53,196 nt of DNA. It comes from Candidatus Bathyarchaeia archaeon. GTDB lineage: Archaea > Thermoproteota > Bathyarchaeia > Bathyarchaeales > Bathycorpusculaceae. The stretch is from NCBI GenBank assembly GCA_049969855.1, contig JBMFOB010000009.1, forward strand, positions 1 through 53,196, written 5' to 3'. The stretch's first letter is position 1; every line of letters begins with the position of its first letter. Under the pieces are notes generated by a model. The model ran no database searches. It saw only the letters and a list, made by a program, of their open reading frames with translations, and was not told the origin of the DNA. Position numbers and translations under genes: made by a program. Positions 1,378 through 8,208 of this stretch are shown in pieces.

Positions 1378-1848
1378 CTAAAACTGTTGGAGAACATCCC
1401 TCTTCTCCATAATATAACCACAATAATGACACTTCAAAACCAACGGATCTTCACTCTCAACATAAAACTTAGTCCGCACAGGCTCATTACTGTTGCTTAT
1501 GCAAGCAGGATTAGCACATTTGATAATGTCCTCAATAACCTTTGGCAACTGAACCCTCTGTTTAGCTACAACATTGTAATCACGGATGATGTTAATTGTG
1601 GCGTGAGGAGCCAACAAGGCAATTTTATGCACCTCTTGAGGGTTCAATTCCCTGCCTTCAATTTTGACAATATCCTTAACTTTAAAACGCTTGCTTGGCA
1701 CGTTAATGGCAATTGTGATTATGCCTTTCTCTCGCCCCGTTATTCCTAAAATTCTAGCAACATCCAAGGCGTGACCACCAGTTATGTGGTCTATAACGGT
1801 GCCATCTTTAATTTTTGAAACATGCAACATAGGCTCACTCATGCGCAA
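1378..1848 (-). CDS. pyrI: Aspartate carbamoyltransferase regulatory subunit
   Basis: GTVIDHI, KDIVKIEG, CANPACIS and CHYC Zn motifs. Confidence 0.97.
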   Translation of the reverse strand: MRMSEPMLHVSKIKDGTVIDHITGGHALDVARILGITGREKGIITIAINVPSKRFKVKDIVKIEGRELNPQEVHKIALLAPHATINIIRDYNVVAKQRVQLPKVIEDIIKCANPACISNSNEPVRTKFYVESEDPLVLKCHYCGYIMEKRDVLQQF

Positions 1849-1934: not shown

Positions 1935-2882
<948 letters not shown>

Positions 2883-2892
2883 CATTCCCAAC

Positions 2893-5106
2893 TTAAACTA
2901 ATGCAAACCTGTCAAACGACGTTAAAGTATCCATAGCCCCACAAGATGGACATTTATGTAAAACGCCAAACCAACTTCTTTTGCAATTAAAACAATAAGT
3001 CAGCTTGCGGTCATAAGTGAAAAACTCAATGCTATAGTCATTGAAAAGTTGTTGGGTTAAGGAGATAAGCTCTTCTGGCTTATGTTCAGCTTCTCCAAGC
3101 TCTATCACTGTTAGGCTTCCGCCAGAATAAAGCCCTTCCATTTCCTGTTCAAACTTTACAGATTCTGGAACAATTTTCCCATCCTTAAAAGTTAGTTTAC
3201 TAACCGTTGAATAGTATGGTTTTTCCCTTGTTCCCAAAAATCGAACCTTCGCCACACCAAACCTTTCAATATCCAACCTTGCCAACCTTTCAGAAGCCTC
3301 AAAATCGGGCAATTTTGCCGTAACCAAACGTTTTCCACACCTTCTGCCAACTTTATGCGTATAATCCAAAATGCTCTTCATAACTTCTCTAGCAAACTCC
3401 AATGCTTTTTCACTCTCACAAACTTGTGTTCCGCAAAATGCTCCAACAGCCTCTCTTAACCCCGCCAAATTTATTATGCAAGAACAATTCTCATTTCTAA
3501 AATACCTGTCACCATTAACATCTTGCATAAGAAACGGAAGCAAACCCTTACCATGCTGTTTGATGGATTTATACTTGATTTCCAACGCACGTGACGCTAC
3601 ATCAAGCCGCTCTTTTAGTATCTGAAAGAATTTCGCCTTATCCCCCTCACACTCACATGTAATCCGCGGCAAATTAAGAGTTACATGGGCTAAATTGCCA
3701 GTTCGCAAAGTGTCTATTTCCCAGTCTCCATTCAAGTTCGCCATAAGCCTAAATCCAGATGTGGAGAAAACACTTTGCCTTTCATCCTTTTTTAAGAGAT
3801 TAGCAAAGCTTAGCATGCCCTTTTCTGAAGCCAGCTGATGCGCCTTAAAAAGTATAGCCTTAACTTTCTCATCTGTAAAGGTTTCTGGACGCATTTTAAA
3901 AATGAGTTTTGGATTAAGCAATGGCTTACATGCGCTTTCTTCCATGAATATGTCTAGAAGAATTGAAGCCAAATTTCGGCTTTCTTCAATGAAATCTCCA
4001 TAATTGCCATCTATTCTTCCAAAAATCCCAACCGCTGGTTTATCTGCAATAAAATCTGGAACTGCAGGCTCCAAGCTTATGGAAGCATCCACATGCTGAT
4101 TTACATTAAGAATGAACAAGCGTAAAGCTTCTTTAACCTCTGAAGCGCTTAAGCCCTTTACAAAAGGGGCGAGAAAAACATTAAAATACTCAAGCAACTG
4201 CGTTTCGCATATTTCCCTAGAGGAATGTAAAAGAACGTTAAAAATGATGGACAAGGCTGATTGTAAATCTTTAGGAGGAGGAAAAGAAGACTGAGAAGCA
4301 GTTATTTTCTCCAATTTCAAACCATTCTGAAAGAAAAACCTTAGATCATGCACTATTCCGCTTGGCTTCAAAATCCAAGAACCTAATCCGCCAATGTGCA
4401 TTGAACCAGACAAGTGAGCATCAGCAATATCCCTTGAAAAAACATTCAGAAGCGTAAACTCTTTCAAAACAATTTCTCCAGCCGTCTCATGAATGTAAAC
4501 TGGCCACTGGGGAGTTTTACTCTTCAAATCCACAAGAGCTGCCACATCATAAACTGGAAGACCCAACCGCGTAAGCTTATGCCGATAATCCTCTAAGCCT
4601 TTTTCAATCAAAATTGCGTTTACAACCTCTCTCACAAGCGGAGCCGTTATATATTTAGGTTTTGACTTAAGCAGTCGTTTTTCTGCTTCTTTAGCTACTT
4701 TTTGCGCCAAATCTGCGGGCATTTTCGTCTCTCTTATAAGCGAATTTGCTATTTTGCTAACATCAAACTCCTCAAGCGTGAATTTGGAGGTTCGGACAAG
4801 CATGCCTTTCGGCTTGAAGGCCTTCTTCTCAATGCGTTCCGCAACTTCAATAACCATCTCACCCAAATCGGTTAAACAATACTTCTTTGTCTCCACATCA
4901 GCCTCGATTAAATCTGCCTTCAACAAAAACTTCAAGTGATAAGCAAACCTTCCAGCATCCCTCGTAGGATTCATCTTCAAAGAACCCATCAACTCAGTAT
5001 AGGAAAGAGGACCCCTATCAAAAAGCAAATTCAAAATCTGCAGCCTAAGAGGTGAAGAAACAGCCTTAAGTATCCTAACTCCCCGCACACGATGTGGAAC
5101 AGACAA
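2893..5106 (-). CDS. ArsR-type wHTH + ATP-cone + class III ribonucleotide reductase (NrdD)-like fusion, catalytically degenerate
   Basis: N-terminal wHTH (SSPLRLQILNLL...YHLKFL), ATP-cone (VRTS...EEFDVSKIANSL...LVREVVNAIL), NrdD-like ADAHLSGSMHI, TGNLAHVTLNLPR, C-terminal CxxC..CPSCG; no RxxGY. Confidence 0.85.
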   Translation of the reverse strand: MSVPHRVRGVRILKAVSSPLRLQILNLLFDRGPLSYTELMGSLKMNPTRDAGRFAYHLKFLLKADLIEADVETKKYCLTDLGEMVIEVAERIEKKAFKPKGMLVRTSKFTLEEFDVSKIANSLIRETKMPADLAQKVAKEAEKRLLKSKPKYITAPLVREVVNAILIEKGLEDYRHKLTRLGLPVYDVAALVDLKSKTPQWPVYIHETAGEIVLKEFTLLNVFSRDIADAHLSGSMHIGGLGSWILKPSGIVHDLRFFFQNGLKLEKITASQSSFPPPKDLQSALSIIFNVLLHSSREICETQLLEYFNVFLAPFVKGLSASEVKEALRLFILNVNQHVDASISLEPAVPDFIADKPAVGIFGRIDGNYGDFIEESRNLASILLDIFMEESACKPLLNPKLIFKMRPETFTDEKVKAILFKAHQLASEKGMLSFANLLKKDERQSVFSTSGFRLMANLNGDWEIDTLRTGNLAHVTLNLPRITCECEGDKAKFFQILKERLDVASRALEIKYKSIKQHGKGLLPFLMQDVNGDRYFRNENCSCIINLAGLREAVGAFCGTQVCESEKALEFAREVMKSILDYTHKVGRRCGKRLVTAKLPDFEASERLARLDIERFGVAKVRFLGTREKPYYSTVSKLTFKDGKIVPESVKFEQEMEGLYSGGSLTVIELGEAEHKPEELISLTQQLFNDYSIEFFTYDRKLTYCFNCKRSWFGVLHKCPSCGAMDTLTSFDRFALV

Positions 5107-5205
5107 AGGCTCACCTCCAGCCTTGGTAAAGGCAATTAACGGAATAAGGGTTTAAAGGTTAAGAACACTTTATCCTTATATGCTTTTCAATCAACTATTC
5201 AAAAA

Positions 5206-5280
5206 GGGGCTGTCGGCTAGCTTGGTCTAGGCTTGGAGACTCGGGCTCTCTAGACCCCGGTTCAAATCCGGGCAGCCCCA
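5206..5280 (+). tRNA. tRNA-Pro(CGG)
   Basis: Acceptor GGGGCTG/CAGCCCC, anticodon arm GGAGA-CTCGGGC-TCTCT, T arm CCCGG-TTCAAAT-CCGGG. Confidence 0.95.
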
Positions 5281-5302
5281 CTAGATTTTGGGTTTAAGTC
5301 TC

Positions 5303-7240
5303 TTAAAATGTGATTAGGGTTAAAATTCTAAGGGTTATTCCGCCTAATAGGATTGCAAAGGTTATTTCGAAAATTGTTATGTATAATGCTTTTTTCCAGC
5401 CGAACTCTTTGGTTAAGGCTGCAATTGTTGCTATGCATGGTATGTAAAACATGGCTACAAGTGTGAAGACAACCATTTGGACTGGGCTAAGAATTTCGGC
5501 AAAATTCGTTGTTCCAAAAAGCGTTGCAAGCATGATTAGTGTTAGCTCTTTTCTTAAAACGCCAAAGATTAAGGTTATTCCTGTTATTGCTGGCAGTCCA
5601 AGCCATGCTACTGTTATGGGGCTTAGCGCCATTGCGATTGGCTCGAGTAAGCCAAGAATTTCGGCAAGCTTTATGGTGAAGCTTCCAACAATTATTAGTG
5701 GAAAGGCTATTTTTATGAATTCAGCCAACCTAAACCACGTTTGTTTTAAAACTGTTTTTATATGGGGCCATCTGTAATCGGACATTTCCATAATTAGGGC
5801 TGTTGGTTCGCCTGGAAGAGCCTTAAAGGCTAGTCTTCCAAGGATGAAAATTACTGCTAGGTCGAATATGTAAAGCGTTAATGCCCATTGTATGCCTAAA
5901 TATTTGCCCACCAAGCCAAGGATTATGACTGTGCGGGCGGCGCAGGGCACGAGTGTTGTTACGAATGCGGCGAGAAGCCTTTCCCTTTGAGTTTCCATTA
6001 TTCTGCATCCTAAGCAGGCTGGAACGTTGCATCCATATCCCAAAATTAGAGGGATGAAGGCTTTTCCATGTAATCCAATTTTGTGCATGACATTGTCCAT
6101 TAAAAAGGCGATTCGGCTTAGGTAGCCTGAATCTTCTAGAAAGTATAGTATAATGTAAAATGGGGCAATGTAAGGCAATGCAATTGTAACACCTGCAATA
6201 ACGCCTTCAAGAATGCTCCAAATCAGTTTTCCAAAGATTTCTGTTCCAAAAAGGCTTAAAAAACTGGGTTCCCATCCATAAAACAAATTGTTTAATAAGT
6301 CTGAAAGGTATCCTCCGAAGGTGAAGATGGAATAGAATATTAAAAGCAGCACAAAAGCCATTATTGGGTATCCCATGATTTTATGGGTTGTAATGTTGTG
6401 GAGGCTTTCTCCTAACTTTGGCTTTATTGGAGACACCAGTTTTTGGGCTTCTCTGGCGATGCAGCCGGCAATTTCATATCTTTCAGAAGTTATCACGGTT
6501 GAGCAGGAATGTCCGTGAAGCTTTTCGATTTCGCTTGCAAGTTTTTTGGCTATAGAGATTATTTGTGGGTTAAGCTTTTTGATTTCCCTTTCTATTTCTT
6601 CATCTCCTTCTAACAGTTTGATTGCAACATACCTTGGCGGATACCAAAATTGGACGCCCTCAACCATTTTTGTGAGTTTGTCGATTCTTTCTTCAACTTC
6701 TTCTCCATACCTAACTGAAACATACTTTGCCGCTTGTCCCTTTTCAACAACTTCAATTGCTTTTTCTAAAAGTTGGAAAATGCCAACTCCTTTTATGGCG
6801 ACTGTGGGTATGACGGGTATTCCCAAAAGCTTTTCCAATTTTTCAACATCTATTTGGATTCCCTTTCTCTTCGCCATATCCATCTGATTTAACGCTATAA
6901 CCATGGGGGTTTCCAATTCCATGAGTTGCAATGTAAAATAGAGGTTTCTCTCAAGGACAGAAGCGTCCACAACATTTATTACAACGTCTGGTTTTTCAAC
7001 GGCAATATATTTTCTAGAAATCAACTCTTCTAAGGAGTAGGTGGAGAGGGAGTATATTCCTGGCAAATCGATAATGTCAATTGTGTAGCCCTTAAAGTAA
7101 AGCGTACCCTCTGCTTTTTCCACGGTTTTTCCAGGCCAGTTGCCAATGTGCTGATGTAAGCCAGTTAAGTGGTTGAAGATGACGGATTTTCCAACGTTGG
7201 CGTTTCCTGCTAGGGCGATTAGCAGTTTCTTTTTAGCCAT
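5303..7240 (-). CDS. feoB: Ferrous iron transport protein B
   Basis: GNANVGKS, NWPGKTVE, DLPG GTPase motifs followed by membrane domain with GYGCNVPA. Confidence 0.97.
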   Translation of the reverse strand: MAKKKLLIALAGNANVGKSVIFNHLTGLHQHIGNWPGKTVEKAEGTLYFKGYTIDIIDLPGIYSLSTYSLEELISRKYIAVEKPDVVINVVDASVLERNLYFTLQLMELETPMVIALNQMDMAKRKGIQIDVEKLEKLLGIPVIPTVAIKGVGIFQLLEKAIEVVEKGQAAKYVSVRYGEEVEERIDKLTKMVEGVQFWYPPRYVAIKLLEGDEEIEREIKKLNPQIISIAKKLASEIEKLHGHSCSTVITSERYEIAGCIAREAQKLVSPIKPKLGESLHNITTHKIMGYPIMAFVLLLIFYSIFTFGGYLSDLLNNLFYGWEPSFLSLFGTEIFGKLIWSILEGVIAGVTIALPYIAPFYIILYFLEDSGYLSRIAFLMDNVMHKIGLHGKAFIPLILGYGCNVPACLGCRIMETQRERLLAAFVTTLVPCAARTVIILGLVGKYLGIQWALTLYIFDLAVIFILGRLAFKALPGEPTALIMEMSDYRWPHIKTVLKQTWFRLAEFIKIAFPLIIVGSFTIKLAEILGLLEPIAMALSPITVAWLGLPAITGITLIFGVLRKELTLIMLATLFGTTNFAEILSPVQMVVFTLVAMFYIPCIATIAALTKEFGWKKALYITIFEITFAILLGGITLRILTLITF

Positions 7241-7516
7241 TTACCTTTCTATCTCCACGAAAATTTTTTCAGCCATGCCTCTGCCGATGGCGAGCCTTGA
7301 GCCTCGCACGAGAATTTCTAAGGGTCCATGGAAGGGGGCTGATTTTACAACGGTTACTTTTGTTCCTGGAGTTAAACCCATGTCCATTAGTCTCTTTTCA
7401 AATCCCCACATTCCTCGTCTTCTTCCTCTTCCCCTGCCATGTCCAGTTTTTACGGAAATGACTATTCCAGTTTCTCCATCCTTTAATGTGGTCAGCGGAA
7501 CTTCCCGTTTTTCCAT
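7241..7516 (-). CDS. feoA: Ferrous iron transport protein A
   Basis: RLMDMGLTPG...APFHGP...LAIGRGMA; abuts feoB. Confidence 0.95.
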   Translation of the reverse strand: MEKREVPLTTLKDGETGIVISVKTGHGRGRGRRRGMWGFEKRLMDMGLTPGTKVTVVKSAPFHGPLEILVRGSRLAIGRGMAEKIFVEIER

Positions 7517-7530
7517 TTAATCACCACTTT

Positions 7531-8208
7531 TCATTTTAATTGTTTAACTTGGATGACTGAGGCTACTTGGCGACTTATGGCATGACGCTTTGAACCTATC
7601 TTCACAGTGATTGGACCGTTAAGGGGAGCTTTCTCCAAAACTTCTATTGAAGCTCCAGGCACAAGTCCAAGTTTGCCCAAGTATTGTAGCAAATCCACTT
7701 GCTCTTCTGTTATTTTCACTATCATGCATCTCTTGCGCGGGGCGAAATCTGTCAGGGGCGTAGATTTTTCTTCGATTATTCCTCCGCATGCTGTTGGGAT
7801 TGGGTTTCCATGGGGGCAGGTTTTTGGATGTTTCAGCGCCTTTTCTAAGGGTTTAATTATTTCTTTGGTTATGCCATGTTCCAACTTGCAGGCTGCTTCA
7901 TGAACTTCCTCCCATTTTACATGCAGAATGTCCACAAGCAAGCGTTCCGATAACCTGTGCCTTCTTATCACTTGTAATGCTATTTTTCTGCCCTTTTCTG
8001 TAAGCTTAACACCCTTGTAGGGCACATGCGTTAAAAATCCATCCTTCTCTAGACGCTCTACAGTATTCGTAACTGTTCCGGGAACAACCCCGAGCATTTT
8101 GACGATGTCGCTGGTTCTGGCGGCTCCGCTCTTTTCTTGCAGCCTATAAATGCATTCGAGATACTCCTCTGTTACTGCCGTGATTTGTTGGCTTTGACTT
8201 TGGGACAT
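7531..8208 (-). CDS. DtxR/MntR-family metal-dependent regulator with C-terminal FeoA domain
   Basis: EEYLECIY, RRHRLSERLL, EACKLEH-like segment, CPHGNPIP; first gene of the feo operon. Confidence 0.95.
   Translation of the reverse strand: MSQSQSQQITAVTEEYLECIYRLQEKSGAARTSDIVKMLGVVPGTVTNTVERLEKDGFLTHVPYKGVKLTEKGRKIALQVIRRHRLSERLLVDILHVKWEEVHEAACKLEHGITKEIIKPLEKALKHPKTCPHGNPIPTACGGIIEEKSTPLTDFAPRKRCMIVKITEEQVDLLQYLGKLGLVPGASIEVLEKAPLNGPITVKIGSKRHAISRQVASVIQVKQLK

Follow-up and report, generated by a model that had tools for sequence, protein, structure and literature searches.

The window analyzed here, a stretch of 53,196 nucleotides that makes up contig C9 of a 1.28-Mb assembly (93% complete) of a Candidatus Bathyarchaeia archaeon, carries on its minus strand (positions 2893 to 5106) a gene for a disabled copy of NrdD, the class III (anaerobic) ribonucleotide reductase (RNR), fused to an N-terminal winged helix. 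We report that the encoded protein cannot be an RNR, that it belongs to one ancient archaeal family under purifying selection, and that, judging from its domains and from the genes beside its relatives, it is probably a DNA-binding, NrdR-like regulator of deoxynucleotide supply. No description of the family was found in the full-text literature searched; databases list it with machine-assigned names and as a domain whose function is unknown. The handles given below to genomes (G), contigs (C), and loci (L) are our own.

Domain architecture and predicted fold of the window protein

The gene is a single open reading frame of 737 codons plus a stop, beginning with TTG, and its product joins a winged helix-turn-helix (wHTH), an ATP-cone, a dead NrdD barrel, and a Zn ribbon, as assigned by Pfam and NCBIfam profiles and an AlphaFold2 model; all features of the gene given below lie on the minus strand. 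The original prediction, made from the letters of the window alone, had described this frame and these four parts with an ArsR-like wHTH; both the frame and the Pfam matches were found, and every string that it quoted is present; the strand, which it had left unstated, is minus. The ArsR-type wHTH covers residues 13 to 96 (window positions 4819 to 5070) and is matched by Pfam HTH_5 (residues 18 to 68, E = 8.8e-6, 25.9 bits with a cut-off of 22) and DUF7347 (residues 13 to 87, E = 9e-7, 29.5 bits with a cut-off of 27.6). In the AlphaFold2 model, which was built from a 74-member alignment (mean pLDDT 89.2, pTM 0.79), this part is predicted to form helices at residues 5 to 15, 19 to 31, 36 to 42, and 51 to 63, strands at 67 to 70 and 75 to 78, and a last helix at 80 to 96, an order of helices and wing that we take to be the ArsR/SmtB topology. 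The presumed recognition helix, RDAGRFAYHLKFL (residues 49 to 61; positions 4924 to 4962), was assigned by what we take to be the HLxxL pattern of ArsR-type proteins; among the 74 members, H57 is invariant and G52, F54, Y56, and L58 are conserved in at least 90%.

The ATP-cone-like domain and its linker follow at residues 102 to 184 (positions 4555 to 4803) and form the most conserved part of the family, with a Pfam PF03477 match at residues 102 to 174 (E = 1.8e-7, 32.1 bits with a cut-off of 25.8). A precomputed PF03477 match is present in 120 of 120 Nitrosopumilus homologs among the matches listed and in part of the Bathyarchaeia list. The cone starts with VRTSK, as opposed to V-x-K-R-D-G in canonical cones; R105 within this start is invariant in the 74-member alignment, as are R159, R175, and R180 further on. 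According to the available text on the P. copri enzyme, the phosphate-binding K-R pair of the canonical cone is Lys7/Arg8 of P. copri NrdD (PMC11226230).

The NrdD-type barrel, catalytically dead, occupies residues 204 to 700 (positions 3007 to 4497). Pfam NRDD (PF13597) aligns with residues 204 to 728 (E = 1e-74) over profile positions 11 to 533 of 562, so that the match stops short of the part of the profile that holds the glycyl-radical end; the NCBIfam NrdD equivalog TIGR02487 gives 271.8 bits, under its cut-off of 326.35. A Zn ribbon, CFNC...CPSCG, is retained behind the barrel (C705, C708, C719, and C722, with CPSCG at residues 719 to 723; positions 2938 to 2994), and all four of its cysteines are conserved in at least 90% of the 74 members. 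The model places the winged helix first, then a cone made of a hairpin plus helices, and then the barrel. When it was compared with the Protein Data Bank by Foldseek, the top matches were all class III RNRs (E values of 7e-28 to 4e-19, 16 to 18% identity, target TM-scores of 0.60 to 0.76), the best being the S. thermophilus, P. copri, T. maritima, and T4 NrdD structures, with class I RNRs next at approximately 1e-8. In the modeled structure, the NrdD fold supposed in the original prediction is retained.

Loss of the catalytic machinery

We aligned 11 active NrdDs with 39 dead copies, one of them the window protein and the other 38 taken from further Bathyarchaeia genomes, and mapped their residues onto P. 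copri NrdD through HMMER alignments, in which chain numbers run 4 ahead of those in the paper. As given in the available part of that paper, the P. copri enzyme has Cys171 on the first strand, the thiyl Cys416, the radical Gly711, loop 2 at residues 304 to 311, an NxN flap, and a TPAE motif whose glutamate bridges the substrate (PMC11226230). Compared to the intact NrdD of the same genome, the window protein has HIGGLGSWILKPSGIVHDLR, STSGFRL, and TLTSFDRFALV in place of HIHNLG--VLGPYCVGWD, SMCCRL, and RVVGYLRPV, respectively, so that the absence of the catalytic Cys and Gly, at first read by eye, is borne out by alignment both to this enzyme, with P. copri numbering, and across the 39-copy family.

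The first-strand cysteine is replaced by Gly in HIGGLGSWILKPSGIVHDLR (residues 237 to 256; positions 4339 to 4398), where GPYC aligns to KPSG; none of the 39 dead copies has Cys at this column, and 4 have one within 3 residues. In the finger loop STSGFRL (residues 448 to 454; positions 3745 to 3765), GF stands where active enzymes have CC, SMCCRL aligns to TSGFRL, and the thiyl Cys is gone; across the dead copies, the CC pair has become Gly plus a variable residue. The radical Gly is found at the aligned column in 0 of 39. The C terminus, TLTSFDRFALV (residues 727 to 737; positions 2896 to 2928), ends at the start of the glycyl-radical loop without RxxGY, and the convergent pyrB gene ends 10 nt from the stop codon, both as claimed earlier. 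In members that branch deeply, the C-terminal loop is still there but has Ala or Ser for Gly (SRSSAKY, GRSSATV, SRVAAKY, and SRISARF), and the subfamily of the window is truncated exactly where they carry it.

The substrate elements have fared no better. The place of the flap, DLKSKTPQWPVY (residues 193 to 204; positions 4495 to 4530), is shortened and without N-x-N, and the flap motif (ENxN) occurs in all 11 active NrdDs but in none of the 39 dead copies. The same counts apply to loop 2, for which the window protein and its close relatives show an outright 8-residue deletion at NVNQHVDAS (residues 334 to 342; positions 4081 to 4107), and to the TPAE motif. The segment LPDFEASERLARLD (residues 599 to 612; positions 3271 to 3312) has lost TPAE(G/S) and has kept RLAxLD, with D612 invariant; NLPR and RLAxLD are retained in the dead copies. 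Altogether, the window protein cannot be a ribonucleotide reductase. Because flap, loop 2, and TPAE are gone as well, any (d)NTP sensing of the kind put forward in the original prediction would more likely be through the cone than in the old active site.

An old archaeal family under purifying selection

More than 120 homologs share the same architecture at 65 to 97% identity; their sources label them Bathyarchaeia or Bathycorpusculaceae, and databases name them 'anaerobic ribonucleoside-triphosphate reductase' or 'ArsR family transcriptional regulator'. In a survey of the class, 187 of 201 genomes matched at E ≤ 1e-10 and about two thirds (a hand count from the table) reached E ≤ 1e-100, a level that, among the places listed, is confined to full-length copies with the winged helix; one large family of the class (f18) gave weak matches only. 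Across the phylum (Thermoproteota), 136 of 401 genomes matched at E ≤ 1e-60, with full-length copies of 30 to 39% identity in many further families. With residues 1 to 200 by themselves as the query, the number of clusters (50% identity level) was 132 at a threshold of E ≤ 1e-30 and rose to 405 when this was relaxed to E ≤ 1e-10; most are proteins of 560 to 800 amino acids. An embedding search, which gives a lead rather than a test, returned clusters with DUF7347 and NRDD whose commonest taxa were Bathyarchaeota, Nitrososphaerota, Promethearchaeota, and Nanobdellota, and these database clusters are a lead that the architecture may reach Asgard and DPANN archaea.

A maximum-likelihood tree was calculated from the cone and barrel columns only (83 rows and 673 columns, quick search, LG+G4), leaving out short fragments and any row that contained more than five X. 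All 63 winged-helix copies formed one clade, with a Shimodaira-Hasegawa-like approximate likelihood ratio test (SH-aLRT) value of 100. Their sister clade (SH-aLRT 92) consisted of 14 active NrdDs that share the VRTS(K/R) cone start, and the genome's own NrdD and three phage NrdDs fell outside both. The family probably arose by duplication of an active NrdD with a VRTS cone, which then gained the winged helix and afterwards lost the radical machinery and the substrate loops.

Selection was gauged by pairwise ratios of nonsynonymous to synonymous substitution rates (dN/dS) in 14 close pairs. Where dS was not saturated, the ratio was 0.09 to 0.18 overall, which agrees with the purifying selection expected of the orthologs, and by part it was 0.02 to 0.11 for the wHTH, 0.02 to 0.16 for the cone, and 0.07 to 0.21 for the barrel. 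Of the 18 columns that are invariant in the 74-member alignment, cone and linker hold 11, the winged helix holds 4, and the barrel holds 3 (P480, R481, and D612); residues such as D229, H231, D254, and N478 of the barrel are near-invariant. These data establish that the dead NrdDs are one ancient archaeal family under purifying selection. Missing catalytic residues and a truncated C terminus could be the marks of a decaying pseudogene or an annotation artifact, but the 737-codon frame is open, orthologs are full length across the phylum, the ratios are low, and the model is confident, so the probability of this reading is negligible. Recent decay, in which close orthologs would be intact, was rejected by the conservation data: the dead architecture is phylum-wide and one clade, and the survival of the frame despite the catalytic loss, noted at the outset for the window gene, is common to a large, old family. 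Occasional breaks occur in this otherwise intact family, either an in-frame TGA or a split (G199:C2:424405-426615 and G555:C1:1756007-1758045).

The constraint on the barrel also bears on whether it has evolved a new activity on or near DNA, be it enzymatic without a radical or nucleotide-processing, as the low barrel ratios and the invariant and near-invariant barrel residues might suggest. Yet the known substrate elements (flap, loop 2, TPAE, and both cysteines) are lost or variable, the Zn ribbon has been lost further in some Nitrosopumilaceae members (L052 and L053), and the retained NLPR and RLAxLD are also conserved in active NrdDs and so may be structural; we consider such an activity very improbable.

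Ribonucleotide reductase genes elsewhere in the genome

The original prediction had advised looking in the genome for a separate, intact nrdD/nrdG, and these exist: nrdR, an intact nrdD, and nrdG lie in a row on contig C5 (L001, 677 to 3955). The intact NrdD has 708 amino acids, carries MCCRLR and RVVGYLRPV, and scores 667 bits with Pfam; a true NrdR of 156 amino acids is encoded in front of it and the genome's sole NrdG over cut-off directly after it. No NrdG was found on the window's own contig, where none of the genome's 14 NrdG-like matches lies, in agreement with the original prediction. The window protein is 25 to 28% identical to the intact NrdD, and the sister-type NrdD has been lost from this genome. 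Contig C31 (L003) holds the start of a class II RNR gene, with a rubredoxin gene approximately 60 nt upstream. Sequences upstream of nrdR resemble, by eye, what we take to be NrdR boxes. As the intact nrdD operon thus has its own nrdR and NrdR-box-like sequences, the better guess for a target of the window protein is the class II RNR gene or its own gene.

Two side observations concern these loci. The nrdR-nrdD-nrdG operon is of bacterial style in an archaeal genome, and its NrdD is 51% identical to that of a phage-labeled gut contig (H1), with which it groups in the tree. On C31, a superoxide-dismutase-like gene stands divergent from the rubredoxin and class II RNR genes.

Genomic context across the family

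We compared 64 loci with a dead copy, 17 of which had been picked knowing of a nearby second match or RNR and 47 as family representatives. In 17 of the 64, a NrdD-type gene lies directly downstream on the same strand, at gaps of -90 to 569 nt, and 14 of these 17 genes keep the Gly and Cys-Cys motifs; the other three are one masked by N, one split (L062), and one that is itself a second dead copy (L061). A class II RNR gene is next door in 4 of the 64, the Bathyarchaeia locus L080 among them (34 nt downstream). This repeated adjacency to RNR genes of two classes strengthens the reading with which the earlier analysis had started, that of a putative regulator predicted to bind DNA and nucleotides. 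In two of the 17 loci with a downstream NrdD-type gene (L075 and L076), a small gene for a CxxC redoxin (thioredoxin or NrdH-like, by sequence reading) separates the dead copy from nrdD. Spot checks of L055 and L100 showed unrelated neighbors.

Two of the loci are unusual in themselves. At L061 (G203; 2680 to 4602, minus strand), the downstream NrdD-like gene is without winged helix, radical Gly (SRSIAFY), and Cys-Cys, and the dead copies stand in tandem. At L062 (G331; 5389 to 7601, plus strand), nrdD is split into frames of 680 and 166 amino acids, with the glycyl motif in the second, and nrdG and pyrB follow; the split is either a frameshift or an assembly error.

The commonest conserved neighbor is pyrB, which is convergent downstream in 32 of the 64 loci and within 150 nt in 17 of those, the window included; in addition, pyrI abuts the gene in L056, and a dCTP deaminase gene lies 20 nt downstream in L103. 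It was considered whether the protein is a DNA-binding regulator of targets other than RNRs, such as pyrimidine synthesis (pyrB/pyrI) or, in this genome, iron uptake (feoAB-dtxR), or responds to a ligand other than ATP/dATP, such as a metal bound by the Zn ribbon or a dNTP in a remnant specificity site. ArsR-family proteins are often metal sensors, the four Zn-ribbon cysteines are kept, and in the window, genes for FeoB, FeoA, and an iron repressor of the DtxR type that carries a fused FeoA domain run upstream (5303 to 8208, minus strand) on the strand of the dead-NrdD gene. However, a convergent pyrB has no promoter in common with the gene, and the active nrdD, where present, stands between the dead copy and pyrB, which fits an inherited gene order; FeoB-like neighbors are unconserved (weak matches of 40 to 46 bits in 5 of 64 loci, i.e., L046, L049, L082, L104, and the window as query), the protein falls short of the ArsR metalloregulator model NF033788 (27.7 bits, with 55 required), and the Zn ribbon was inherited from NrdD. 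We find targets or ligands of this kind doubtful. In the simplest history, the ancestral order was dead copy, nrdD, and pyrB on the opposite strand, and the lineage of the window lost nrdD, so that its pyrB adjacency looks like a remnant of the older order. The placement beside pyrimidine genes reported at first holds in that pyrB (1950 to 2882, plus strand), a conserved neighbor across loci and context rather than part of the gene, does adjoin it; the two are convergent and form no operon.

Nitrosopumilaceae and candidate operators

The regulator reading also draws on Nitrosopumilaceae, a family of aerobic ammonia oxidizers that gave N-terminal matches and was recognized by the names that sources give its proteins. 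The dead-copy gene is present in 60 of 61 of their genomes, including 52 of 52 high-quality ones, and in 29 of the 30 best-scoring loci, a class II RNR gene lies directly downstream on the same strand, the exception being at a contig edge. In five complete genomes, the sole NRDD match over cut-off is the dead copy itself (50 to 72 bits), and NrdG over the curated cut-off was found in none of the five.

These genomes speak against a role by protein contact, in which the dead copy would join an active RNR as a non-catalytic subunit or as an allosteric partner, in a heterodimer with NrdD or a complex with class II RNR, and perhaps tether dNTP synthesis to DNA instead of controlling transcription. 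The close, co-oriented adjacency to nrdD or nrdJ in many lineages and the purifying selection on the barrel could be explained in this way, and since NrdD is dimeric, pairing of dead and live subunits is possible in principle. Nevertheless, Nitrosopumilaceae retain the gene without another NrdD or an NrdG over cut-off in the five complete genomes, and the inactive partner of a true NrdD that the original prediction offered as its second option is thereby refuted as a general function. Moreover, the window's genome has no sister-type NrdD, its remaining one being distant from the dead copy; a partner would have to serve enzymes of two RNR classes; and conservation peaks in wHTH and cone rather than on the barrel surface. 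We regard a partner role as quite unlikely.

Returning to a regulator, we observed 95 GATC sites in the spacers before nrdJ, compared to 30 ± 5 in dinucleotide shuffles, and 109 in the 220-nt stretches that precede the regulator gene, compared to 27 ± 4.5, numbers that overstate independence because the genomes are relatives. Of five other 4-base palindromes, four had no such excess in either region, and CATG was raised twofold (60 versus 31), upstream of the regulator only. Spacings between GATC sites cluster at 10 to 12 and 18 to 22 nt. A triple-GATC pattern was genome-wide no commoner than its reversed control in three genomes (13 versus 14, 8 versus 15, and 19 versus 10), and it matches the region upstream of the regulator in 3 of 3. 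The GATC boxes are candidate operators in Nitrosopumilaceae. A second element, ATGAnnnTCAT followed by GGTGT...TTGA, occurs in 16 of 29 spacers but is missing from all 30 regions upstream of the regulator. A conserved triple-GATC cluster was also found (L139, 1271 to 1306; L140, 1257 to 1292) upstream of a small gene approximately 0.4 kb from an orc1/cdc6-like gene, possibly at a replication origin.

Proposed mechanism and points against it

As we picture the regulator, its ATP-cone would read adenine nucleotides, ATP versus dATP, as cones do in NrdR and RNRs; the dead barrel and Zn ribbon would serve as a scaffold for a dimer or oligomer, in which the ligand would alter geometry or cone docking; and the winged helices, acting as a pair, would bind operators or let go of them accordingly. 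We infer the DNA binding, the ligand, the oligomerization, and the target genes in this genome. A bolder version, which we offer tentatively as a possibility, is that archaea have in this family their missing equivalent of NrdR, a master regulator of dNTP supply that was made from its disabled target enzyme, reads the ATP/dATP ratio, and binds phased short boxes, which in Nitrosopumilaceae would be the TGATC-core repeats at its own promoter and before the class II RNR gene. From the GATC cluster at orc1/cdc6 comes a hint that the protein could also link the synthesis of dNTPs with the initiation of replication.

Several observations weigh against a regulator of deoxynucleotide supply, in addition to the relatedness of the Nitrosopumilaceae genomes. 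RNR neighbors are present in just 5 of the 47 loci picked solely as family representatives, and the window copy adjoins none, its upstream neighbors being tRNA-Pro and feoAB. Searching for operators by k-mer enrichment in 39 Bathyarchaeia upstream regions yielded only the TATA-like GTTTAAA, and inspection of this genome by eye revealed no convincing motif common to the regions before nrdJ, the nrdR operon, and the window gene. GATC is absent from the upstream region of the window gene and strongly avoided in its genome, and the cluster beside orc1/cdc6 means that GATC clusters may mean something else. The cone has R-T-S-K without the canonical K-R pair, so nucleotide binding is not assured, and a scaffold role explains the constraint on the barrel only in part. 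In the alignment of 39 dead copies, the thiyl column is Cys in 5, and 2 (L049 and L050) have G-Y one column off the radical Gly; both of the latter are without finger-loop cysteines, and thiyl-column Cys and G-Y are never combined in one copy. Finally, none of the 23 sequencing runs listed with the gene is recorded as RNA.

Relation to known proteins and significance

The window protein resembles NrdD in its ATP-cone, its ten-stranded barrel with finger loop, and its C-terminal Zn ribbon, and a sister clade of active archaeal enzymes has the same unusual VRTS cone start. It differs in having neither the thiyl and first-strand cysteines nor the radical Gly, tail, flap, loop 2, or TPAE, in its extra N-terminal winged helix, in adjoining no nrdG, and in scoring below the equivalog cut-off. 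NrdR is described in the available parts of two studies as a repressor of RNR operons in bacteria and some archaea, made of a Zn ribbon followed by an ATP-cone and bound to phased boxes (PMC12176259, PMC9110341). The likeness lies in an ATP-cone joined to a DNA-binding module, here a predicted one, in the encoding beside RNR genes, and, for Nitrosopumilaceae, in helically phased short boxes upstream of RNR and regulator genes. Unlike NrdR, the window protein begins with an ArsR-type winged helix, its Zn ribbon is C-terminal and derived from NrdD, and it contains a whole dead barrel (737 amino acids versus approximately 150), with no homology outside the cone. With ArsR/SmtB proteins it shares an HTH_5 match above cut-off and, in the model, four helices followed by a wing of two strands and one more helix, whereas it misses the NF033788 cut-off and its winged-helix domain is joined to another 640 residues that stem from an RNR.

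Regulators derived from enzymes include PyrR, BirA, PutA, and NadR, in which the enzyme moiety typically remains active or still binds its former substrate. As in these, a pathway enzyme fold would here be reused as the sensing part; in contrast to them, a radical enzyme has been fully disabled and its substrate loops removed. Literature searches returned no example of a regulator built on a glycyl-radical enzyme fold, and no description of a winged-helix NrdD-like protein was found in full-text literature, supplements and subscription journals not being covered; nor is one mentioned in the available parts of PMC13450708, PMC3019208, and bioRxiv 10.1101/2022.04.23.489257.

If the reading is true, this would be the first transcription factor known on a glycyl-radical-enzyme fold, a new kind of pseudoenzyme regulator in which a complete radical enzyme has been disarmed into an apparent DNA-binding sensor, and it would explain RNR control in many archaea without NrdR. 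Some of the most abundant archaea on Earth carry the dead-copy gene. The hypothesis is directly testable in Nitrosopumilaceae, some of which are cultured: in nearly all of those sampled, the gene stands directly before the sole RNR gene, and candidate operator boxes are visible. Independently of function, the family exposes a systematic misannotation, since public names give 'anaerobic ribonucleoside-triphosphate reductase', some with '(formate)', and metabolic reconstructions of Bathyarchaeia, ammonia-oxidizing archaea, and others may as a result wrongly credit them with an anaerobic dNTP pathway.

Immediate neighborhood of the window gene

The 5' region of the gene (positions 5111 to 5156) contains a TATA-like TTTAAAC at 5150 to 5156, from which a promoter is inferred, and a Shine-Dalgarno-like GGAGGTGA at 5111 to 5118, 5 to 12 nt before the TTG start; GTTTAAA/TTTAAAC is present in 26 of the 39 Bathyarchaeia regions upstream of family genes. 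A scan for sigma-70 promoters and terminators stayed at or below shuffle level and is not applicable to archaea, and an Rfam scan of the window locus and three Nitrosopumilaceae loci returned nothing besides tRNA. A tRNA-Pro(CGG) gene (5206 to 5281, plus strand) lies between feoB and the dead-NrdD gene and leaves approximately 100 nt for the promoter; the identical tRNA sequence stands upstream of the orthologs in L013 to L016, L018, L020, and L034.

On the other side of the gene, pyrI (1378 to 1848, minus strand) and pyrB are divergent and approximately 100 nt apart, as opposed to the usual pyrBI operon. Over the whole genome, GATC is approximately sevenfold under-represented, with 641 sites versus 4689 expected from base composition, a scarcity that suggests avoidance of a restriction system.

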